Positions 2,021-59,089 of a stretch of DNA of 64,000 bases are shown here, one piece after another. The first letter of the stretch is position 1. Each line of letters opens with the position of its first letter. The position numbers were made by a program, and so were the translations under genes. Under the pieces are notes generated by a model. The model searched no databases. It was not told the DNA's origin and saw only the letters and a list, made by a program, of their open reading frames with translations. The stretch is from Escherichia coli (GTDB taxonomy: Bacteria > Pseudomonadota > Gammaproteobacteria > Enterobacterales > Enterobacteriaceae), in the NCBI RefSeq assembly GCF_050920415.1, contig NZ_CP169309.1; one strand, 5' to 3'.

Positions 2021-2914
<894 letters not shown>

Positions 2915-2967
2915 TTACCTCATCAATCGCTTGTAGTTATATGTTGTGTTGTGCACATCTATCCGTT

Positions 2968-2992
2968 TAGACGTCCAGATGTAAAGATGAAG
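2968..2992. promoter_or_regulatory. tandem met-box-like 8-mers (candidate MetJ operator) upstream of metF
   Basis: tagACGTCCAGATGTAAAGATG contains consecutive octamers resembling the AGACGTCT met box, about 60 bp upstream of the metF start. MetJ repression of metF is established; exact position is hand-indexed. Confidence 0.5.
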
Positions 2993-3294
2993 GAAAAGCT
3001 GAAGGGCGTCAACCGAAAAATGACCAATGATGGTGAGGAAAAATCAGGGAAGATGAAAAAAATTCATCTTAATTAGAGGTAATAAATAGATTTCTTTATA
3101 GCGCAATCAACCTCACTCGTTTTGACTGATATACAGGCAACACAACGGCACCTGTTTCTCATTCGAAAAACAACGCCCTGCCACCAGATGGTGATGCTAA
3201 AGCATCTGATTCGGCCTGCGCTCTCGTGTAGGCCGAATACAGAATCTGCGAAATCAACGGGTAACAAACAGCAGAGTCAACTCAGTGCGTACTT

Positions 3295-4850
3295 TTATTT
3301 AATATCTTTCACGCGCATACCGTTGATCTGTTCATCCGTGATGGTATTACCCGCTTTAAAGTAATCAACCACCGCGTGATAAACGTAATAACCGCCCGTC
3401 GTATTGCGCGCTTTACCCTCGGTAAACGCGGTAAAACCATCTCCACCATCAGCAAGGAAACTCTGAGTGGCAATGTGGTAAACCGTCGCATCTTCAATCG
3501 GTTTGCCATTCAAAGTCAGTGAGATAACCCGCTGACCAACCGGCTTGCTGCTGTCGTACTTCATTTCCAGGCCTTTCGATACCTGTAAAACGCCATTACT
3601 TAAACTTGCGCCGTGTTCCATCAAACTGCGTAATTGTTTACCCGTGAGATCCATCGTCACCAGTTCGTTGGGGAACGGGAAGGTACTGATGACGCCACCC
3701 ATCGTAATTGCACCCGCCGGGATCTCATTGCGAATCCCGCCAGAGTTGGTTAACGCCAACTGGGTATTTTTACCCGCCGCTGCCAGCAAAGCGTCCGCCG
3801 CCAGGTTCCCGAGGGAAGCCGATTCACCATAGGCACGTTTTAATTCAACCGGCGATTGCGCCACCGTTTGCTGACTTCATCCAGCTTTTTGTTCCAACTA
3901 TCAATCACCTGTTTCGTTTGCGGATCGGGCTTCCACTCATCGGCGTAAAGGGTTTTAAGCTCGAAGTTTTTCACCGTAAAAGTGTGCGGCTTCTCTTTGT
4001 AGTCGAGAACCAGTTTACCCACATCAATCCCGCCGCTGTCAGTGGAGAGGATTAACGTATTGCCGACTTTAATCGGTTCCGGCGTACCCACATGTGCATG
4101 CCCGGTGATCAAAATATCCAGCCCTTTCACCTGACTTGCCGTCTGAATATCTTTATCCAGCGCGCGACGCACATCTGTGCCTCCCATACTGGACTGGCGG
4201 GCCGGAACACCTTCGTGGATCAGGGCAACGGTCAAATCAACCTTGCCTTTGAGTTCATCGATATAACGTTGTAGCCATTTAATTTCATCACGCGCCTCAA
4301 TACCCACTCGCGTTGCCGCAGATACCGTATCATTAAAGGCAAATACACCGTGCAAACCAATCACGCCAATTTTCACGCCGTCTTTTTCAATGATGGTATA
4401 GGGCTTATCCCAGAATGATTTACTGCTGTTCTGATAAAAAACATTACCCTGCACAATCGGGAATTTTGCCTGACTCAGCTGTAATAACGTATTGTCCCAG
4501 CCGTGATCAAATTCATGATTACCTATAGTGACCGCATCGAACGGCATGGTATTCATAATATCGATAATCGCCTTGCCTTTAGTCAGGCTGCTGATATACG
4601 GCCCGGTAAAATAGTCACCCGCATCAAAAAACCAGGTCGCTTTGTTTTTAGCTTTTTCTTGTTTAACAAGCGTAGTGATATTTGCCCAGCCGCCAATATC
4701 TCGTTTACCGTCAGCAATCCACGGCACTTTATAAGGCTCTACATGTGCATGGAGGTCGTTGGTATAAATGATGGTGACATCTTTGGCGCAAGCCCAAAAC
4801 GGCAGTGTTAATGCGATACCCGCAGCAAGCATTTTAATTTTCATAAACAA
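3295..4850 (-). pseudogene. 5'-nucleotidase / metallophosphatase family paralog disrupted by a frameshift
   Basis: Two overlapping minus-strand ORFs in different frames (3840-4850, 336 aa; 3295-3864, 189 aa). Together they align end to end with the intact paralog at 7922-9547 (N-part ...[15 protein letters not shown]; C-part [19 protein letters not shown]...). The frame break is near 3850-3865. Metallophosphatase motifs DxH, GDxxxG and GNHE are present. Confidence 0.75.
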
Positions 4851-4893
4851 TCCCTTCCAGTGAGATAAAGGATTGCTACATTACGTTCTGAAA

Positions 4894-4909
4894 GGCTTTT
4901 TTATGTGAG
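4894..4909. promoter_or_regulatory. perfect-consensus CRP-type site TGTGA-N6-TCACA in a divergent promoter region
   Basis: Sequence tTGTGAgaatacTCACAt sits between the divergent starts at 4850 (minus) and 4977 (plus). Both half-sites match the CRP consensus exactly. Confidence 0.55.
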
Positions 4910-4976
4910 AATACTCACATCCAGAGGCGATAACTGTAGGACAAAATCAACGACCTTATGAAATCGTTGGTGATAT

Positions 4977-6104
4977 ATGTCAAATCTGTTTGCGATTAAT
5001 GTCTGTAAAACGTTCGGTTGTCGAAATTTGGGATTGGCCTCATCGGAAGATTACAGTTGGCCAGACTATAAACTGGGTTTTCCGGCACTACACTGCCAGG
5101 CATGCGGAAGTTACCCCCCTTTGTTTGATGAACAACAATTTCGTGACTGGTTGTCAGTTCACATGACTACGTGTGCCATAGAAACAGGGCATTTTTGTCC
5201 ATCATGCTATTGTAAAGAAAAGATTTTTTATGGCCACAACCCGCAGGGAACACAACGCGTTCAATGCCGTTCATGCAAAAAAGTCTGGACTCCGAAACAG
5301 CAGCCAGCAAGAGAAATTACGTATCCCCAGTCCATTGAAACCGTTCAACTGTTCATGCCCTTTCAAGGAGCCAGCGCACTACAAAAGCTCTATGTTTTAG
5401 TCAGTCTTGACGCCACTCGTGGCAACATCCTTCATCTCTCCACGAATTATACGCAACATCAGACAGGAGACAGTCTGCGGTACAGTTACAGAGGCAATAC
5501 AGAACCAACTGAGCACCATAGCGATATTGTGCAGAGGGTAGATATGCGTGAAGCGCAATTCTTGCGCCGGAGCCAGTTCGATGAAATTCAGTATGGCAGT
5601 GCTGTGCTCAAGCGCAATGGCAAGGGAGCCATACTACGCCCGGTTATCACGGCACACGGGCATTTCAGAATACTGAAAATCCGCTTTCCACATGTCAAAA
5701 CGCATATCATTTCACACGAATGTTTTCTGAGAGGCGCAATTATTACAGCCTGGGCAGATCAGTTCCGCCAACAACAAGGCGAACTTTGGTTCGTAGAAGA
5801 AGAAATCAGCGACCGTAACGCTGATATTCCCTGGCATTTTCAGGGAACGACATACCATGGTTGGTGGCAAAATCAGTGGCAACGCTGGGGGCAGGGGAAT
5901 AACAGCAAGATGGTCTGCCTGCTCACAGGAGTCTCCTTAGAAAGGGGCGCAAATGTTTCTCTGGCAACCAGTCGTTGCTTTATCACATGGCTGACAGACC
6001 AACACGACTTTACCCAAAGCGCGTTATTATCCGCAGGTCGCGTAACGAAAATGCTGACCTCACTGGCGTTAAAATACAATGAATCGCTCAATCCATCTTG
6101 TTAG
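4977..6104 (+). CDS. hypothetical cysteine-rich protein (multiple CxxC pairs, possible zinc-ribbon N-terminus); function unknown
   Basis: 375-aa ORF with no signal peptide. N-terminal 100 residues carry C10/C15, C40/C43, C74/C77/C79 and C97/C100 (HCQACGS..., CPSCYC..., CRSCKKVW). The C-terminal part is Trp-rich. I do not recognise the family. Confidence 0.65.
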   Translation: MSNLFAINVCKTFGCRNLGLASSEDYSWPDYKLGFPALHCQACGSYPPLFDEQQFRDWLSVHMTTCAIETGHFCPSCYCKEKIFYGHNPQGTQRVQCRSCKKVWTPKQQPAREITYPQSIETVQLFMPFQGASALQKLYVLVSLDATRGNILHLSTNYTQHQTGDSLRYSYRGNTEPTEHHSDIVQRVDMREAQFLRRSQFDEIQYGSAVLKRNGKGAILRPVITAHGHFRILKIRFPHVKTHIISHECFLRGAIITAWADQFRQQQGELWFVEEEISDRNADIPWHFQGTTYHGWWQNQWQRWGQGNNSKMVCLLTGVSLERGANVSLATSRCFITWLTDQHDFTQSALLSAGRVTKMLTSLALKYNESLNPSC

Positions 6105-6222
6105 TCAATACACTCGACAAACGACCATAAATTAATGGGATCACTATTTCTCATTTAATTAAATATATGAATGTATGACTGAAAAATATAATCACAGTCA
6201 ATGTTTAATTAATAACATTATT

Positions 6223-6238
6223 TGTTACTAAGATCACA
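6223..6238. promoter_or_regulatory. CRP-like site (TGTTA-N6-TCACA, one mismatch) upstream of the nucleotidase/tsx-like gene set
   Basis: tTGTTActaagaTCACAt lies about 95 bp upstream of the 6334 start in an AT-rich 229-bp leader. Confidence 0.3.
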
Positions 6239-6333
6239 TAATACTTTCCTGACCTATGCTTACATAAAAATAAGACACGGAGTTCCTTTTATTTAAATAA
6301 TTCAACCAATGTAACAACCCCTATCAAGGAGGG

Positions 6334-7887
6334 ATGATGAGAACTGTATTTACGACTTTATCAGTCATATTCAGCGTGATGTTTTCTCACAGTATACTAG
6401 CTCAGGACGTTACTATTTATTATACGAATGATATTCACGCACATGTCAATCCGGCAAAAATTCCCGCTGTTGATAAGAACAGACTTGTAGGTGGTATGGC
6501 TAATATCGCAGGCATCGTTAATGAAGCGAAGAAAAAAAACAAAGATGTCTTTTTCTTTGATGCAGGCGACTATTTTACCGGTCCGTATATCAGTACCCTG
6601 ACCAAAGGTGAAGCTATTATTGATATCATGAACACCATGCCCTTTGATGCGGTGTCCGTTGGTAATCACGAGTTCGATCACGGCGTGCCCAATATGGTAT
6701 CTCAGTTATCAAAAGCAAAATTCCCCATTCTGCTGGGAAATATTTACTACACCGATACAAATAAACCAGTTTGGGATCATCCGTGGACCATTATCGAAAA
6801 AGATGGTTTAAAGATTGGTGTGATTGGATTGCATGGTGCATTCGCTTTCTATGATACAGTCGCGGCAAAAGCACGTGAAGGCGTAGAAGCCAGAGACGAA
6901 ATTAAATATTTAAATAAAGCACTTGCAGAATTAAAAGGTAAAGTCGACATTACCGTTTTGCTAATTCACGAAGGTGTTCCGGCGCGTCAATCAAGCTTTG
7001 GTAGTAAAGATGTGGAGCGGCTACTACAGGCAGATATTGAGACAGCTAAAAAAGTGAATGGTGTTGATGTCTTAATTACCGGTCACGCACATGTCGGAAC
7101 ACCGCAACCAATAAAAGTTAATAACACATTAATTGTATCTACCGATGCATACGGCACCGACATCGGAAAACTTGTGCTTGATTACAATCCGAAAACAAAG
7201 AAAATTGATAGTTATAATGGTGAGTTAATCACCATCTTTGCAGATCAATTTAAACCTGACACCATCGTTCAAAATACTATCGATAAATGGAGCGTAAAAC
7301 TTAACAAAATAACACAGGAAGTTGTCGGCCATTCTCCCGTAGTTTTAACACGTGAGTATGGCAGTTCTTCTTCTACCGGTAACCTTATTCTGGATGCAAT
7401 GATGGAAAAAACACCTGATGCCATTGCCGGATTTCAAAATAGCGGTGGGATGCGAGCTGATTTTCCTAAAGGTGATATCACACTGGGAGATGTTATTAGC
7501 ACATTCCCCTTTAATAATGACCTCATCGAGATGGATTTGACGGGCCGCGATCTCAAATCGTTGATGACGCATGCAACCAATCTAACTAACGGTGTGTTAC
7601 AGGTTTCAAAAAGCGTTGCGGTTGTCTATGACAGCAAAAAACCACTCAACCAACGGTTAATCTCTTTCACCATTAACGGCAAACCCGTGGAAGATAATCA
7701 AACATATCGTATTGCCACGCACTCCTTTTGTGCCAGTGGTGGTGACGGTTTTGAAGCATTTTTGAATGGAAAAAATGTGAAGACGATACCGGGAACAACC
7801 TCGGCGGAATCAATCATCGATTATTTCAAAAATCATAAACCTGTCACCCCAGACTTAACTAAACGAGTCATGGACGTCGCCAAATAA
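6334..7887 (+). CDS. periplasmic bifunctional metallophosphatase / 5'-nucleotidase family protein (UshA-like)
   Basis: 517-aa ORF with a signal peptide (MMRTVFTTLSVIFSVMFSHSILA|QD), metallophosphatase motifs (TNDIHAH, FDAGDYFTG, GNHEFD) and a 5'-nucleotidase-type C-terminal domain. Strong Shine-Dalgarno (aaggaggg) precedes the start. Confidence 0.85.
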   Translation: MMRTVFTTLSVIFSVMFSHSILAQDVTIYYTNDIHAHVNPAKIPAVDKNRLVGGMANIAGIVNEAKKKNKDVFFFDAGDYFTGPYISTLTKGEAIIDIMNTMPFDAVSVGNHEFDHGVPNMVSQLSKAKFPILLGNIYYTDTNKPVWDHPWTIIEKDGLKIGVIGLHGAFAFYDTVAAKAREGVEARDEIKYLNKALAELKGKVDITVLLIHEGVPARQSSFGSKDVERLLQADIETAKKVNGVDVLITGHAHVGTPQPIKVNNTLIVSTDAYGTDIGKLVLDYNPKTKKIDSYNGELITIFADQFKPDTIVQNTIDKWSVKLNKITQEVVGHSPVVLTREYGSSSSTGNLILDAMMEKTPDAIAGFQNSGGMRADFPKGDITLGDVISTFPFNNDLIEMDLTGRDLKSLMTHATNLTNGVLQVSKSVAVVYDSKKPLNQRLISFTINGKPVEDNQTYRIATHSFCASGGDGFEAFLNGKNVKTIPGTTSAESIIDYFKNHKPVTPDLTKRVMDVAK

Positions 7888-7921
7888 AATATCATTTATC
7901 AGTCTATATATTTAACAAGGA

Positions 7922-9547
7922 ATGCGAATGAAAACAGTGCAGCGTACTTTACTTGCCGCAACATTGCTGACTATTTTTTCGGTCTCAGTCATGGCGCAGG
8001 ATGGCACGATTATTTATACAAATGATCTTCACACTCATGTGGATTCTTATAAAGTGCCGTATATCGCAGACGGAAAACGCGACATTGGCGGCTTTGCCAA
8101 TATATCTACTTTAGTAAAACAAGAGAAAGCGAAAAATAAAGCCACCTTTTATTTTGATGCTGGAGACTATTTCACCGGCCCTTATATCAGCAGTCTGACA
8201 AAGGGCGAAGCAATAATTGACATTATGAATACCATGCCTTTTGACGCAGTATCAATCGGCAATCATGAGTTTGACCATGGCTGGGATAATGCCCTGCGAC
8301 AATTAAGCAAAGCGAATTTTCCTGTTTTATTGGGCAATGTTTATCATAAAGAGAGTGAGAAACCCTTCTGGAACAAGCCCTACACCATCCTGGAAAAAGA
8401 TGGCATCAAGATTGGTATTATTGGGCTACACGGCGTATTTGCATTTAATGATACGGTCTCGGAGCTCTCTCTCCAGGGACTCGATAATGACAATAATAAC
8501 CGCTTTGATAAATCTTCCGAGACCCTTAAGAATCAGGGGATTGAAGCACGTGATGAAGTGAAGTATTTGCAGCATTATATCGACGAGTTACGTGATAAGG
8601 TTGACCTCACTGTGGCGCTGGTTCATGAAGGCGTTCCGGCGCGTCAGTCCAGCATTGGCAATACAGATGTTAGACGCGCTCTTGATAAAGATATTCAAAC
8701 CGCTAGCAAGGTGAAAGGATTGGATATTCTGATTACCGGGCATGCCCACGTCGGAACGCCAGAACCAATCAAAGTCGGCAACACCTTAATCCTTTCGACT
8801 GATAGTGGCGGTATCGATATTGGTAAATTAGTCCTTGATGTCAACCCTACAGCTCGTACCCATAAAATGAAGAGCTTTGAGCTGAAAACAGTTTATGCCG
8901 ATGAATGGATACCCGATCCAACGACACAAAAAGTTATCAATGGCTGGAATAAAAAACTGGCGGATATTGTACGCCAACCAGTGGGTGAATCATCGATTGT
9001 ATTAACTCGCGCCTATGGTGAGTCATCGCAACTAGGCAACCTGTTTACCGATGCAATGCTTGTCGCTGCTCCGACTGCACAGATTGCATTGATAAACTCC
9101 GGCAGCTTACGTGCGGATATAAATGCAGGCACGATTACCTTTGGCGACATTACCAGTACATTCCCCTTCAAGAATGAACTTACTGAAATGGATCTCAGCG
9201 GTAAGGATCTGCGTAACCTACTGGAACACGGGGCATCGCTTACCAATGGCATCCTGCAAATGTCAAAAGGCGCAGAAATGCGCTATACCCCGCAGAAACC
9301 AGTAGGTCAGCGCATAGTATCTTTTAAAATTAATGGTGAAGAGATCGTTGATACGAATATTTACCATGTTGCAACAACGACTTTCCTTGCACTGGGGGGC
9401 GATGGTTTTCTGGCATTCAAAGAAGGGAAAAATGTTCAGGTCCGCGCCAGAAATAACATGTCCGATGTCGTGATCGATTATTTGAAGAAAGGCCACAAGA
9501 TTACGCCTGCACAGGTAAATGAAATGCGGGTGGACGTTAGCAAATAA
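7922..9547 (+). CDS. periplasmic bifunctional metallophosphatase / 5'-nucleotidase family protein, second paralog
   Basis: 541-aa ORF with a signal peptide (…VSVMA|QDG) and the same motif set. It is about 80% identical by eye to the frameshifted copy at 3295-4850 and carries an extra low-complexity insert (LQGLDNDNNNRFDKSSETLKNQ). Confidence 0.85.
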   Translation: MRMKTVQRTLLAATLLTIFSVSVMAQDGTIIYTNDLHTHVDSYKVPYIADGKRDIGGFANISTLVKQEKAKNKATFYFDAGDYFTGPYISSLTKGEAIIDIMNTMPFDAVSIGNHEFDHGWDNALRQLSKANFPVLLGNVYHKESEKPFWNKPYTILEKDGIKIGIIGLHGVFAFNDTVSELSLQGLDNDNNNRFDKSSETLKNQGIEARDEVKYLQHYIDELRDKVDLTVALVHEGVPARQSSIGNTDVRRALDKDIQTASKVKGLDILITGHAHVGTPEPIKVGNTLILSTDSGGIDIGKLVLDVNPTARTHKMKSFELKTVYADEWIPDPTTQKVINGWNKKLADIVRQPVGESSIVLTRAYGESSQLGNLFTDAMLVAAPTAQIALINSGSLRADINAGTITFGDITSTFPFKNELTEMDLSGKDLRNLLEHGASLTNGILQMSKGAEMRYTPQKPVGQRIVSFKINGEEIVDTNIYHVATTTFLALGGDGFLAFKEGKNVQVRARNNMSDVVIDYLKKGHKITPAQVNEMRVDVSK

Positions 9548-9557
9548 TAAAAAATTA

Positions 9558-9592
9558 TAATGCCATTCATTCACTGAATGGCATTATTTTTC
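9558..9592 (+). terminator. rho-independent terminator-like hairpin after the second nucleotidase gene
   Basis: Inverted repeat aatgccattca / tgaatggcatt with loop ttcac, followed by a T-run (tattttt). Confidence 0.55.
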
Positions 9593-9624
9593 TCTAAATC
9601 AACAATAAATAATGAGATATATTT

Positions 9625-10485
9625 ATGTGTATAAAAAAGCACGGGATAGCTTTATCGATTCTATTAATACCTTGCATTGGAAACGCTCAGGAAATTAAAA
9701 GTGAGGAAGGCTGGTTACATCAAAGCTTGAATGTCATTGGTCGCACAGACTCTCGCTTTGGCCCAAGGCTGACTAACGACCTCTACCCTGAATATACTGT
9801 AGCAGGAAGAAAAGACTGGTTTGATTTTTATGGTTATGTTGATCTACCAAAATTCTTTGGCGTCGGCAGTCACTATGATGTTGGGATCTGGGATGAGGGC
9901 TCACCACTATTTACGGAAATAGAACCTCGGTTTTCCATTGACAAATTGACCGGATTAAATCTTGCGTTCGGCCCTTTTAAAGAATGGTTCATTGCAAACA
10001 ACTATGTCTATGATATGGGTGACAACCAGTCATCCCGGCAAAGTACATGGTATATGGGGCTTGGTACAGATATCGACACGGGTCTACCAATTAAGCTTTC
10101 TGCCAATATATACACCAAGTATCAGTGGCAAAACTATGGTGCCGCTAATGAAAATGAATGGGACGGATATCGATTCAAAATAAAATATAGCATTCCTCTT
10201 ACCCATTTATTCGGAGGGCGATTGGTATACAATAGTTTTACTAACTTTGATTTTGGCTCCGATCTTGCGGACAAATCACACAATAATAAACGAACCAGTA
10301 ATGCTATTGCTTCAAGCCATATCCTTTCCCTGCTATATGAACACTGGAAATTTGCATTTACACTACGTTATTTTCACAACGGTGGACAATGGAATGCTGG
10401 GGAGAAAGTTAACTTCGGAGATGGTCCATTTGAATTAAAAAACACAGGATGGGGAACCTATACTACTATTGGTTATCAATTTTAA
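9625..10485 (+). CDS. Tsx-family outer-membrane nucleoside-specific channel paralog
   Basis: 286-aa ORF with a signal peptide (…IGNA|QE). It shares long blocks with E. coli Tsx as I remember it ([90 protein letters not shown]) and ends in an aromatic residue. Confidence 0.85.
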
Positions 10486-10630
10486 ATCAGGTGATGTTTT
10501 AGATATTTTTACTTAATGCCATTTTGTAATTGTCATAAATAACTTCACCATTCACACTGTGAATTCATCGCTCAACACAAAAGCCCCTTATTACCGGGGC
10601 ACTGACCAAAGGCAAAATGACAATCAATCA

Positions 10631-10688
10631 CCACCTCCGCAGGAGGTGGTTTAGAGGTGACAACAAAAGCTGGCAACTGCCAGCTTTT
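10631..10688. terminator. two adjacent hairpins forming a probable bidirectional terminator between the tsx-like gene and metL
   Basis: ccacctccgcaggaggtgg (10631-10649) and aaaagctggcaactgccagctttt (10665-10688). On the minus strand the second is a GC stem followed by a T-run immediately after the metL stop. Confidence 0.55.
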
Positions 10689-10700
10689 GTTCAATAATCA

Positions 10701-13133
10701 CTACAACAACTGCGCCAGACGGTTAATATCCGACTGAATCGCCCCGGCGGTGACGTCGCGCCCTGCACCTGGCCCGCGGATCACCAGCGGGTTGTCGCGA
10801 TACCAGCGGCTTTCGATGGCAAAGACGTTATCGCACGGTAGTAGTGATGCCAGCGGATGGTCTTCTCGCACCGCTTCCACGCCTACTCGCGCTTTGCCGT
10901 TGGCATCGAAACGCGCCACGTAGCGCAACACCAGCCCCATTTCACGGGCCGCTTCCAACCGTTGTACCATCTGCTCATTAAGTTCATCGCCATTTTCAAA
11001 GAAATGGTCGATGCTTCCACCTTCGCAATGGGTTGGCACCAGTGATTCAACACGCACCTGGTCCGGTTCAATGTTGTAACCCGCTTCACGCGCCAGAATC
11101 ACCAGCTTGCGCATCACGTCTTTGCCGGAGAGGTCATCACGCGGGTCAGGTTCAGTTAAGCCCTGCTGCCACGCCTGATCCACCAGCTCGGTAAACGGCA
11201 CGCTACCGTCGAATTGCAGGAACAGCCAGGAGAGTGTGCCGGAGAAGATCCCGCTGATCGACAAAATAGTGTCGCCGCTGTCGATCAGATCGCGCACGGT
11301 ATGGTTGATCGGCAAACCTGCGCCGACGGTGGCGTTGTATAGCCAGTGACGCCCGGTTTTTTCGAACGCGTCGTGGATCTGGCGATATTTATTGCTGTCG
11401 CTCGCTCCCGCCAGTTTGTTGGCACTGATGACGTGGAAACCGTGGCTGGCGAAATCGAGGTATTGATCGGCCAGTTGCTGACTGGCGGTAACGTCCAGCA
11501 CCACTAAATCATCATACGGATGGGCACGCATCCACAGGAACAGCGACTCTTCATCCTGTTCGACGGCTTCATCATTAAAGAAGGCTAGCGCACGGCTGGC
11601 GTCCAGCCCGTCATAGCTCAACAGGCTGCGACGGCTGTCCACCACGCCTGCCAGCACAAATTCAAAGCCGGTGCGCGCCGAGAGCGTGCTCTGCTCACGG
11701 GCGAACAGTTCCAGCCAGCGGGAACCGATATTGCCCTTACCGAACAATACCAGGCCGATGCGTTTTTCTGCGCGGAAGACGGACTGATGCAGCCCCTGAA
11801 TCAGGCTTTCGGTCGGCCCGGTGCGCAGTACTGCCACCAGGCTGATGCCGTCATCGGACTGCCAGGTAAACTCGACCGGCTGGCCTTTCAGTTGCTGCCA
11901 GAAGCGGTGGCAATGCAGCGGGTTACGGGTGACGCCCGCCCCAACCATCGCCACCAGCGCCAGCCCCTGACGCAGGCGCAGTTCGCCAGGTAATCCTGCT
12001 TCGTCGAGGATTTTCAGCGCACTGTCGGCCACTTCCGAGGTGTAGCAAAATTGCAGCAACTGGCGATCGTTATGCACGCCAACCGCCAGTGGGCGCACCT
12101 GAGCACGTTTCAGGATTTGGTCGATCTCTTTATGCGCCAGTTTGAAATCCTGACTGGCGGGCACCTGAAACTCAATCAAACAGACATCATCGTGGCTGGT
12201 GACAATACGCGCGCCCGTACCGGAAGCCAGCACGCGTTCAATGCGCGTGGAACCTTGATCCGGTGTATAGCTACAGCGCAGCTGCAGGTCGATTTCACTG
12301 CCAGAAACTGGCTGTAAAGTACGCGCGTGCAACACTGGCGCGGCAAGACGCGCCAGTTCGCTGGCTTCATCAAGACGCAGCAATGGCAGCAGACAGGCAT
12401 CTTTCACTTTACGCGGGTCGGCGCTATATACCCCGGCGACGTCACTCCAGATGGTTACGCGGGAAACTCCCGCCAGCGCACCGATTTGTGTCGCGGAATA
12501 GTCGGAACCGTTACGCCCCAGCAGCACCGTTTCACCGGCGTTGTTACGGCTGATAAACCCGGTCACCACCAGACGTTTGCCCGGATGTTGTACCAGTAGC
12601 TGTTGCAGCAACGGGTAAGAAAGCCCTTCATCAACCTGCGGCTGCGCGGCGCGTTCAGCGCGTAAAAACTCGCGGGCATCAAGCCAGGCCGCTGGCAATC
12701 CTTGTTGATTAAGTACCGCAGACATCAGGCGCGCCGACCACACTTCACCGTGGCCCACCACTTCCGCATACACCGCATCGTTAATACCGCTGTCGAGCAG
12801 CGCCGCCAGGCGTTCCAGATCGCTGACAAAAGCGCTAATGAGGCTATCGGCTTCTTCAGCGGGTAGCAGGCCGCTAATCAGATCGCACTGATAACGACGT
12901 AGCGTTTGTTGAACCTGATGCGCAGAGAGACGATCGGTCTGGCTTAGTTTCAACCAGTTAATCAACTGGTTAGTGGTGCTACCGGCGGCGGAAACCACCA
13001 TCATATCGTCAGGCTGAGAGTACTCCGCCATAATGCCCGCGACACGCAAATAACACTTCACATCAGCCAGACTACTGCCACCAAATTTATGCAGTTGACG
13101 ACCTTTCGCCCCTGCCTGCGCAATCACACTCAT
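10701..13133 (-). CDS. metL: bifunctional aspartokinase II / homoserine dehydrogenase II
   Basis: 810-aa ORF MSVIAQAGAKGRQLHKFGGSSLADVKCYLRVAGIMAEYS... recognised as MetL. Confidence 0.96.
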   Translation of the reverse strand: MSVIAQAGAKGRQLHKFGGSSLADVKCYLRVAGIMAEYSQPDDMMVVSAAGSTTNQLINWLKLSQTDRLSAHQVQQTLRRYQCDLISGLLPAEEADSLISAFVSDLERLAALLDSGINDAVYAEVVGHGEVWSARLMSAVLNQQGLPAAWLDAREFLRAERAAQPQVDEGLSYPLLQQLLVQHPGKRLVVTGFISRNNAGETVLLGRNGSDYSATQIGALAGVSRVTIWSDVAGVYSADPRKVKDACLLPLLRLDEASELARLAAPVLHARTLQPVSGSEIDLQLRCSYTPDQGSTRIERVLASGTGARIVTSHDDVCLIEFQVPASQDFKLAHKEIDQILKRAQVRPLAVGVHNDRQLLQFCYTSEVADSALKILDEAGLPGELRLRQGLALVAMVGAGVTRNPLHCHRFWQQLKGQPVEFTWQSDDGISLVAVLRTGPTESLIQGLHQSVFRAEKRIGLVLFGKGNIGSRWLELFAREQSTLSARTGFEFVLAGVVDSRRSLLSYDGLDASRALAFFNDEAVEQDEESLFLWMRAHPYDDLVVLDVTASQQLADQYLDFASHGFHVISANKLAGASDSNKYRQIHDAFEKTGRHWLYNATVGAGLPINHTVRDLIDSGDTILSISGIFSGTLSWLFLQFDGSVPFTELVDQAWQQGLTEPDPRDDLSGKDVMRKLVILAREAGYNIEPDQVRVESLVPTHCEGGSIDHFFENGDELNEQMVQRLEAAREMGLVLRYVARFDANGKARVGVEAVREDHPLASLLPCDNVFAIESRWYRDNPLVIRGPGAGRDVTAGAIQSDINRLAQLL

Positions 13134-58255: not shown

Positions 58256-59089
58256 TTAATTACTCAAACGCTGCGGATGGGTATAAACCGTTGCCCGACC
58301 CGGCTTACAAAAGCCCACCAGCGTCAAATTACAGCGCTCAGCCACTTCTACGGCAAGCGTGGTCGCGGCAGACACCGCAAACAAAATTTCTACGCCGCAC
58401 ATCGCTGACTTTTGCACCATTTCATAACTGGCACGACTGGAAACCAGCACCGCACCTTGCTGCCAGCTTTCCCCTTCTTGTGACCGGCGGCCTAACAGTT
58501 TATCCAGCGCCACATGGCGACCCACGTCTTCATGCCCGCCTACCAGTTCGCCAGATGGCAACATCCAGGCAGCGGCGTGAGTACAACCAGTCAGTTGCCC
58601 CACTGGCTGGAAATCATTGAGATGGCGTAATGCATCATCCAGTTTGTTGAGATCAAATGTCTGAGTGAACGGCAGCGGCTGCACCGGTTTACCGATGTCA
58701 TTAAGTTGCTCCACGCCGCACACGCCACATCCCGTACGTCCCGCCAGTGCCCGACGACGCTCCTTCAACCCCATAAAGCGGCGGCTGGAAAGCTCAATTT
58801 GCACTTCCAGACCATTACAGGAAGGAACGACATCCATACCGAAGATATCGCGCGGACTTTCGATAATCCCCTCGGAAAGCGAAAAACCGAGCGCAAAGTA
58901 TTCAAGGTCTTTGGGCGACGCCATCATCACCACATGCGAAATGCCGTTGTAGACCAGCGCAACGGGAACCTCTTCCGCCACCTCATCTAACCGTGGGTGT
59001 TGTAAATCGTCACGCCGCCATAACTCAATTTGACGAACACCTGTGACATTTGTCACATTTTTGATTTCTTTTTGCTGTGTTTTTTTCAC
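58256..59089 (-). CDS. fdhD: formate dehydrogenase sulfurtransferase / accessory protein FdhD
   Basis: 277-aa [52 protein letters not shown]... recognised as FdhD. Confidence 0.95.

Follow-up and report, generated by a model that had tools for sequence, protein, structure and literature searches.

The window of Escherichia coli chromosome studied here (64 kb; all coordinates are positions in it) carries a locus between metF and metL that encodes three proteins of the 5'-nucleotidase family (N1, N2 and N3), a Tsx-family channel (TsxL) and a cysteine-rich protein of 375 amino acids (aa) that we term HYP. The enzymes and the channel are ordinary members of their families, and as a catalogued locus alone the region is a modest accessory metabolic module. 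The new part is HYP, which we describe as a transposase-derived protein tied to nucleoside and nucleotide genes and which, judged from its sequence and surroundings, may act as a regulator. That the locus serves Enterobacteriaceae in scavenging nucleotides and nucleosides under catabolite control, with HYP as its locus-specific regulator, is in our view a proposition with about even chances. The wider idea is that HYP founds a family of transcription factors that arose from an IS1-like DDE transposase, in which the zinc ribbon would bind DNA, the dead domain would sense nucleosides or nucleotides and the regulon would parallel those of CytR and DeoR. We offer it tentatively and would sooner expect it to fail than to hold.

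An earlier reading of the window, made from the letters and their open reading frames (ORFs) and called the sequence-only reading below, had described these ORFs and proposed a role in nucleotide and nucleoside scavenging. All of the ORFs are present between metF and metL, and the families were named correctly (Metallophos/5_nucleotid_C, NCBIfam and Channel_Tsx matches). The proposed role is plausible and has also been put forward independently. The long form of the locus, which the window carries, is the region 'GR 31 (metL..metF)' of the avian pathogenic E. coli (APEC) strain BEN2908 and of B2 extraintestinal pathogenic (ExPEC) and adherent-invasive (AIEC) E. coli strains (PMC12928451). From annotation, this publication of 2026 suggests coordinated nucleotide processing and nucleoside transport, that is, the same scavenging hypothesis for the same locus. 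It treats the region as present or absent relative to K-12 and lists the Tsx gene and three nucleotidase ORFs; the accessible text of the paper does not discuss the 375-aa protein and does not contain an ancestral short form, a site for the cyclic AMP receptor protein (CRP) or a mosaic origin. The module had further been said to be uncharacterized. This is true in so far as no study of its function was found; however, structures of N1 exist (3IVD/3IVE) and the region has been catalogued as GR 31.

HYP is probably derived from an IS1-like transposase

The sequence-only reading had listed HYP as a Cys-rich unknown. The richness in cysteine and the length are real, but HYP is not a plain unknown, since its features point to a transposase ancestry. 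The protein is cytoplasmic by prediction and carries two zinc ribbons of the CxxC...CxxC type, of which the second is of the InsA/IS1 type. Searches against Pfam and NCBIfam returned a weak match to the InsA/IS1 zinc ribbon at residues 74-115 as the sole hit, and the score with the IS1 transposase model NF033558 was 19.6 bits at a cut-off of 100. The structure model is of high confidence (predicted local distance difference test, pLDDT, 94) and has the RNase H-like fold of DDE transposases. When the HYP family was aligned by hhalign with IS1 InsAB' (a query 99.6% identical to the annotated IS1A), the InsA part alone aligned (IS1 residues 4-88; probability 96.3%, E 1.9e-9), while in distant family members the match to the IS1 model extends over 130-140 residues. 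Among 51 family members, Zn_ribbon_InsA was recognized in eight at E<=0.001 and in 22 at E<=0.1. The eight zinc-ribbon cysteines are well conserved, with C97 and C100 invariant and C77 kept in 49 of the 51 sequences. A DDE domain of Pfam was detected in none of these 51 proteins.

The family is small (122 representatives when 1.84 billion proteins are clustered at 50%) and goes by the public name 'cytoplasmic protein' or, for members from Vibrio, Proteus and Serratia, 'IS1 family transposase'. Distant paralogues of 300-460 aa that are 22-29% identical to HYP and also named 'cytoplasmic protein' occur in Salmonella and E. coli (AFDB entries Q8Z9N7 from S. Typhi, A0A8X6EQK0 from S. Dublin and A0A828N132 from E. 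coli; P0142 from Salmonella serovar Give).

The positions at which a DDE transposase holds its catalytic residues were located in the 51 sequences. After beta-1 (position 122), where a catalytic Asp is expected, 49 sequences have T or S. After beta-4 (221-222), where the next Asp is expected, R or K is followed by P, and P222 is found in 49 of them. The third position is acidic throughout (E248 or D in 51/51). R198, H229 and W301 are invariant, H247 is kept in 48 of 51, and W297 and N368 are nearly invariant. Two of the three catalytic carboxylates thus seem to be missing from HYP, which we read as a domesticated IS1-like transposase, probably without catalytic activity. The helix-turn-helix (HTH) segment, IS1 residues ~45-88, is kept in distant members and falls into a gap in HYP of the window and in its enterobacterial orthologues.

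The gene does not behave like a mobile element. BLAST against complete E. coli genomes found at most one copy of HYP per genome. Terminal inverted repeats were found neither around the island of the window nor around three modules at other sites, and an IS1 inverted repeat was not found either. The ratio of non-synonymous to synonymous change (dN/dS) is 0.07-0.25 for HYP, compared with 0.02-0.04 for N1 and 0.01-0.05 for MetL, which indicates a purifying selection on HYP that is looser than that on N1 or MetL. Across the genera compared, non-synonymous change in HYP runs about 4-40 times faster than in N1. Within B2, adjoining N1 genes are 99% identical with a synonymous divergence (dS) of 0.035, while the HYP alleles differ with dS ~1.0 and share 76% aa identity (window 4977-6104 compared with L002:8080-9210 and L056:3580-4704).

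HYP has in common with IS1 InsAB' and the InsA repressor the second zinc ribbon and the RNase H-like DDE-transposase fold. Unlike IS1, it carries one more zinc ribbon at its N-terminus and is considerably extended at the C-terminus, its E. coli type is devoid of the HTH, and its gene is free of inverted repeats, single-copy and fixed in its chromosomal neighborhood. In HTH, DDE triad, inverted repeats, copy number and score relative to the cut-off HYP thus departs from an IS1 transposase, and it is better described as a member of an IS1-derived family. A function in anti-phage defense was also considered and rejected, as PADLOC gave no match for HYP or three distant homologues and the match in PHROGs was a weak one to a transposase zinc finger.

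Nucleotide and nucleoside genes adjoin HYP

When one genome of each bacterial species was scanned with a narrow HYP alignment, 36 loci were obtained, only from Enterobacteriaceae and Rahnella. In 35 of these a divergent nucleotidase gene lies immediately upstream of HYP, and the 36th locus is cut by a contig end. We have in addition inspected eight distant contexts, in which the HYP homologues are 22-30% identical (38-40% for Citrobacter paralogues) and two similar contigs are counted as one. Seven of the eight lie beside nucleotide or nucleoside genes. The homologues of Vibrio scophthalmi, V. taketomensis, Proteus terrae and a metagenome contig adjoin a 5'-nucleotidase gene; on a second metagenome contig the homologue is divergent from add-deoC-deoA-deoB-deoD, beside a nucleoside ABC transporter of the Bmp type, and on a third it is divergent from a NupC-type transporter and a PNP/Udp pair. 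The Citrobacter paralogues stand beside an N3-type nucleotidase gene. The eighth context, represented by the two similar contigs, has no nucleoside or nucleotide neighbor. Because a genome holds few such genes among thousands, we reason, and this is an argument and not a computed statistic, that the adjacency is far beyond chance.

The control region between N1 and HYP is conserved and contains a CRP-type site

With the pattern TGTGA-N6-TCACA (10 scored positions), CRP-type sites were found in both promoter regions, as the sequence-only reading had noted. The divergent region between N1 and HYP contains the core palindrome TGTGAGAATACTCACA at 4904-4919, which matches at 10/10 positions, is kept across more than ten genera and resembles the lac CRP site. 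Upstream of N2, TGTTACTAAGATCACA at 6223-6238 matches at 9/10. The window as a whole contains six CRP-type matches where 1.9 are expected. CRP-like sites (8-9 of 10) recur in promoter regions near distant members of the HYP family. A second perfect core palindrome, TGTGACATTTGTCACA at 59042-59057, is unrelated to the metF/metL locus.

In an alignment of 27 loci from more than ten genera the region between N1 and HYP is strikingly conserved, although the genes on either side have reached saturation at synonymous sites. The region keeps the CRP site, TTACGTTCTGAAAG (4881-4894) and a -10-like CAAAAT (4942-4947); AAATCGTTGGT (4961-4971) is almost invariant and present in 26 of the 27 loci. Each of the conserved intergenic motifs is unique in the window. 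Since -10-like hexamers can be read on both strands, the center of the CRP site would lie about 41.5 bp from each presumed transcription start, in a class II geometry. The site itself is present, and control of the N1 and HYP promoters by CRP is predicted from it. Possible hairpins or operators formed by CCTTTCAG...CTGAAAGG and by CAACGA...TCGTTG were discarded; across the 27 loci one arm varies, the other is fixed and no compensatory changes are seen.

In Vibrio, the region upstream of the nucleotidase gene that adjoins the HYP homologue has features of its own. V. scophthalmi (L013:6196-6414) has a perfect GCAAACGTTTGC palindrome of the PurR/CytR (LacI-family) operator type, and V. taketomensis (L055:3309-3435) has a related AAACGTTT core. 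By their sequence these elements suggest that a second regulator may act on the Vibrio nucleotidase promoters.

Regulator or enzyme

A partner that varies within one theme, a mostly divergent arrangement, a conserved control region and an InsA-like N-terminus together resemble the signature of a pathway-specific regulator. In Enterobacterales and Vibrionales, the targets of such a family would be periplasmic nucleotidases, Tsx paralogues, deo operons and NupC-type transporters. We have searched the literature on transposase-like regulators of nucleoside genes and found nothing relevant.

Several points weigh against a regulatory HYP in a scavenging locus. The catalytic positions were mapped by the order of secondary-structure elements and not by superposition, and the conserved polar residues R198, H229, H247 and E248/D might just as well make up a catalytic or metal site. 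With the HTH gone, DNA binding by HYP of the E. coli type would have to come from the zinc ribbons alone. A palindromic operator with covariation was not found in the 27-locus alignment, and the conserved intergenic blocks could be promoter, untranslated region (UTR) or Shine-Dalgarno elements or the sites of another factor. In two of the distant loci the HYP gene is co-directional with a nucleotidase gene and lies downstream of it, an arrangement that fits a partner as well as a regulator. Periplasmic nucleotidases logically need no nucleoside channel in the outer membrane, and the coupling with TsxL does not follow from their role. Searches of the literature on c4898 (the N1 orthologue), the protein accessions and 3IVD found no functional work on the locus.

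Some of these points can be turned into an alternative, in which HYP is a cytoplasmic nuclease or phosphotransferase of RNase H fold that has a remodelled His/His/Glu (metal) site and works in the same pathway as the nucleotidases. Such an enzyme would be in line with the confidently predicted fold, with the invariant H229 and R198 and the nearly complete conservation around H247 and E248, with the missing HTH of the E. coli-type protein and with the two loci where the gene immediately follows a nucleotidase gene. However, the canonical catalytic Asp positions are T/S and R/K-P, and the N-terminal part is homologous to the DNA-binding module of the InsA repressor. Moreover, divergent placement with a shared and highly conserved control region is the commonest arrangement, and the partners vary from a nucleotidase to the deo operon and nupC-udp, which fits the regulator of a theme better. 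We therefore regard an enzymatic HYP as unlikely.

The nucleotidases and the channel are ordinary family members

The concern that the nucleotidase-like ORFs might belong to an unrelated family is settled by their homology to the 5'-nucleotidases. For N3 the Pfam matches are 5_nucleotid_C at 1.7e-36 and Metallophos at 1e-10. N1, N2 and N3 match NCBIfam models of the UshA, NadN, SoxB and YfkN types, in all cases far under the equivalog cut-offs; the UshA equivalog NF007109 has a cut-off of 600 bits, and N2 reaches 165.6 and N3 151.3 bits. Judged from their sequences, all three are paralogous members of the 5'-nucleotidase family and not UshA orthologues. The pairwise identities are 59% for N2 and N1, 65% for N3 and N1 and 54% for N3 and N2. 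The dimetal motifs (DxH, GD, GNHE, H and GHxH) and the C-domain motifs GGxR, FPF and GGDGF can be read in all three translations, and across 17 homologues D29, D73-G75-D76, N108-H109-E110, H209 and H248 are invariant, as are R372, P390-F391 and G467-G468-G470-F474. N-termini that resemble signal peptides, read by eye and unscored, suggest that the three proteins are periplasmic. N3 contains in addition an Asn/Asp-rich insertion of ~24 aa in its N-terminal domain (residues ~181-205; ELSLQGLDNDNNNRFDKSSETLKNQ) that is absent from N1 and N2.

The fold matches are 3IVD, 2Z1A, CD73 and UshA. The intact B2 allele of N1 is 100% identical to PDB 3IVD, which has uridine bound, and 99% identical to 3IVE, with cytidine bound; N2 matches 3IVD/3IVE at E 2.6e-190. 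These entries, deposited as putative 5'-nucleotidase c4898 by structural genomics in 2009, thus represent the protein of the intact N1 allele, and a publication on the function of c4898/3IVD was not found in the library searched. The bound uridine and cytidine point to pyrimidine nucleotides as the probable substrates of N1, although they report on the binding of nucleosides and not on turnover. With UshA and the wider family (CD73, T. thermophilus 2Z1A, NadN, YfkN) the proteins share the Metallophos and 5_nucleotid_C architecture, the dimetal and nucleotide-binding motifs, the N-terminal export signal and the fold. They differ from the family in coming as one to four tandem paralogues and in a solved structure that holds pyrimidine nucleosides, and from UshA, CD73 and 2Z1A in being only ~21-27% identical to them; the scores of 151-166 bits stand against the 600-bit cut-off for UshA.

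In contrast to c4898 of 3IVD/3IVE, N1 of the window is inactivated. The frameshift reported in the sequence-only reading is real and consists of a 4-bp deletion after position 3873, and PGAP marks the gene 'frameshifted'. It is not a feature of the module. The exact deletion sequence occurs in one of 5,426 complete E. coli genomes, so that the frameshift is either peculiar to this strain or an error of assembly, and pseudogenization of N1 as a property of the module was rejected. Another long-form genome has all five genes intact.

TsxL is a full-length member of the Tsx family. It matches PF03502 (Channel_Tsx) at E 1.3e-69 over residues 30-286 and NF011686 with 489.9 bits (cut-off 311) over positions 6-289 of the 289 in the profile. 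It aligns to residues 11-272 of Tsx (PDB 1TLW), including the C-terminal Phe, and is 64% identical to it. Since it is full-length by the family model and by 1TLW, and since the same 861-bp ORF is annotated as intact elsewhere, the PGAP call of a pseudogene with 'missing C-terminus' in NZ_CP169399.1 (L001:10225-11070; it ends 15 nt before the stop) is unjustified. With Tsx, a nucleoside-specific channel of the CRP/CytR regulon that also serves phage T6 and colicin K as receptor, TsxL has in common the full-length barrel with its C-terminal aromatic residue and a CRP-type site upstream of the operon. Unlike Tsx, it belongs to a separate paralogue lineage, forms part of a nucleotidase operon and lacks five residues in one loop; its net charge is -4 compared with -11. 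The nearest relative outside E. coli is found in Citrobacter enshiensis (85% identity), the others being at <=68%, and the Tsx paralogues of related modules in other genera are 57-59% identical. A channel for anionic substrates such as nucleotides was considered for TsxL and set aside; the less negative charge is not shared by other module-linked Tsx paralogues and does not decide the matter.

The presence of the long form in pathogenic strains raises the alternative that the module mainly serves the interaction with the host. The extra nucleotidases would then break down ATP, NAD or cyclic (di)nucleotides outside the cell, release adenosine or further nucleosides and dampen immune signaling, in the manner of CD73, S. 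aureus AdsA and streptococcal CdnP. An enrichment in ExPEC and AIEC lineages would thereby be accounted for; the long form is common to the B2 ExPEC and AIEC model strains covered by the accessible text of PMC12928451 and to ST95-type genomes. The fold, after 3IVD and the T. thermophilus enzyme, is closest to ecto-nucleotidases of the CD73 type, and three paralogues that have diverged to 54-65% identity suggest a broadened substrate range. However, the core of N1 and HYP is common in environmental and commensal Enterobacteriaceae, the proteins look periplasmic and not surface-anchored, and the ligands in 3IVD/3IVE are pyrimidine nucleosides and not adenosine. Catabolism is rather suggested by CRP control and by the association of deo and nupC genes with the HYP family. 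We find a main role in host interaction quite unlikely.

The locus is partly ancestral and polymorphic in E. coli

The region is absent from K-12, as had been claimed, and its extent is slightly wider than the 3200-10660 given before. DNA absent from K-12 spans 3067-10701; homology to K-12 stops at 3066, homology to K-12 and ST131 (sequence type 131) resumes at 10702, and only 348 bp separate metF from metL in a K-12-type genome. Three states of the site are found in E. coli: empty (K-12), a short form with the divergent pair of N1 and HYP (ST131), in which HYP abuts metL, and the long form of the window. Among 5,426 complete genomes HYP occurs in 1,841 and N2-N3-TsxL in 660, in 658 of them at full length, so that about 1,180 genomes have the short form and about 3,585 are empty. 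The genes are thus not shared by most E. coli; any part of the locus is present in 34% and all of it in 12% of the complete genomes. Compared with the window, 97 of the 660 long genomes are at least 99% identical and 563 are at 95-99%, including ST95-type strains; NZ_CP169399.1 (strain MFDS1022581) is essentially identical. For two of the E. coli matches to the locus and to HYP, the sequence record is classed as a plasmid and not as a chromosome.

The sequence-only reading had assumed an insertion of 7.4 kb. About 5.4 kb (5300-10700) have indeed been added, but the pair of N1 and HYP is found at the same site in nine genera. The order metF-N1-HYP-metL, with N1 and HYP divergent, is present in 23 of the 36 species loci, from Citrobacter, Pseudocitrobacter, Escherichia (including E. 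whittamii), Klebsiella, Kosakonia, Phytobacter, Superficieibacter, Kluyvera and Salmonella arizonae. Because of this shared site, it is most parsimonious on the sequence comparison that the pair is ancestral at metF/metL and that K-12-like lineages lost it. For the 193 bp that only K-12 has at this site, no counterpart was found in occupied alleles, and a deletion scar was not recognizable in them; the direction of change in K-12 is for this reason read from the phylogenetic distribution only. These 193 bp contain a degenerate element resembling a repetitive extragenic palindrome (REP).

Identity between the B2 long and the ST131 short allele is ~100% from metF to ~4995, mosaic to ~5295 and 0.54-0.83 in the rest of HYP. 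This profile places the left recombination breakpoint inside HYP, at ~5000-5300, and the drop of identity within the gene implies that a cassette of ~5.4 kb, made of the C-terminal part of HYP and N2-N3-TsxL, entered by homologous recombination. GC content is lower in the island than in the metL flank (0.39-0.46 across N2-TsxL and 0.55-0.61 in metL).

Elsewhere on the chromosome, Enterobacter, Klebsiella sp., E. albertii and some E. coli carry related modules, in which one to four additional nucleotidase genes and a Tsx paralogue share the strand of N1. A second, larger type of module, N3-Tsx-N2-N2-N1 divergent from a HYP paralogue that is ~67-69% identical, was seen in E. albertii (L009:2261-11131), E. 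coli SCPM-O-B-8794 (L026:1260-10131) and L045. In E. albertii it lies between DAHP_synth_1 (kdsA-like) and Na_Ca_ex (chaA-like) genes, and some Escherichia and Citrobacter genomes have both the larger module and the one at metF/metL. In several genera a LysR-family regulator gene and a carboxymuconolactone-decarboxylase-family (CMD) gene stand between metF and N1, for example in Citrobacter and Pseudocitrobacter (L004:5897-7272, L005:6880-8252).

The whole 7.4 kb could still be viewed as an island that was acquired horizontally between metL and metF and was possibly mobilized by HYP as a transposase. The low GC content, the absence from K-12 and ~66% of E. coli genomes, the modules at other sites in Enterobacter, Klebsiella and E. 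albertii and the transposase ancestry of HYP would agree with this. However, the presence of N1 and HYP at one site in nine genera argues for an old resident, and present data suggest that the metF/metL pair tracks the species tree. An integrase, direct repeats or a tRNA gene were not found at the module boundaries. For HYP itself the catalytic residues appear to be lost family-wide, and its gene is found in a single copy and evolves under purifying selection. A transposon nature of the module was rejected on the absence of inverted repeats, both terminal ones at the island and at the three modules elsewhere and that of IS1. Only ~5300-10700 behaves as imported DNA, and it came through homologous recombination within HYP. 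An acquired island of the full length is accordingly very unlikely.

Layout of the locus

The features of the locus are listed in Table 1. An Rfam scan of 2800-10800 (E<=1) found no riboswitch or known RNA. The hairpin between N3 and TsxL, which contains AATGCCAT, resembles a hairpin 3' of the Tsx gene that ends the Enterobacter module (L006:5584-5625), and this likeness hints that TsxL was appended behind an original operon terminator. The intergenic region between metF and N1 (2912-3294) holds a REP-like palindrome at ~3205-3240 and a single-base indel that distinguishes the window from NZ_CP169399.1 (7,801 and 7,800 bases, respectively, in this comparison).

Table 1. Features of the metF/metL locus, in window coordinates
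Feature	Position	Strand	Remark
metF	2021-2911	minus	left flank of locus
metF upstream region common to K-12	2912-3066		98.7% BLAST identity to K-12-type intergenic region
N1, UshA-family 5'-nucleotidase, c4898 orthologue, pseudogene here	3295-4844	minus	split into ORFs 3295-3864 and 3840-4850
N1/HYP divergent control region	4845-4976		132 bp; alignment of 27 loci
HYP, 375 aa, Cys-rich, two zinc ribbons and RNase H-like fold	4977-6104	plus	
long-form cassette	~5300-10700		sliding-window identity, long and short alleles
AT-rich spacer 5' of N2, GC 0.35-0.39	6105-6336		CRP-like site inside
N2, UshA-family 5'-nucleotidase paralogue	6337-7887	plus	ORF start 6334/6337
N3, UshA-family 5'-nucleotidase paralogue	7928-9547	plus	ORF start 7922/7928
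13-bp-stem hairpin, T runs on both sides	9557-9587		between N3 and TsxL; terminator/attenuator-like
TsxL, full-length Tsx-family outer-membrane channel	9625-10485	plus	861-bp ORF
two hairpins 3' of metL and TsxL (convergent terminator region)	10630-10691		
metL	10701-13133	minus	right flank of locus

Discussion

Here, we describe a polymorphic and partly ancestral scavenging locus with CRP-type sites, which is real and less exotic than first proposed. In the mechanism that we favor, the old core would be the divergent pair of N1 and HYP, transcribed from a common control region of ~130 bp that contains one CRP site, and in ~12% of E. coli the cassette of N2, N3 and TsxL would have been recombined in via the HYP gene. 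Upon carbon scarcity cAMP-CRP would switch the genes on. The three nucleotidases would dephosphorylate nucleotides in the periplasm, with pyrimidine nucleotides as the likely substrates of N1, and TsxL would pass nucleosides or a related substrate across the outer membrane. HYP would bind the conserved intergenic DNA through its zinc ribbon of the InsA type, and its degenerate RNase H-like domain might serve as a sensing or oligomerizing module.

Adjacency to genes for nucleotide and nucleoside scavenging, in Enterobacterales and Vibrionales, is the only consistent genomic property of the HYP family. The solved structure of N1 with pyrimidine nucleosides is an immediate starting point for biochemistry, and the empty, short and long states of the site in E. 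coli provide natural isogenic contrasts for growth on nucleotides and for host niches. Should HYP prove to be a regulator, bacteria would offer a clear example of a DDE transposase recruited as a pathway-specific transcription factor, and nucleoside catabolism would gain a missing layer of control.

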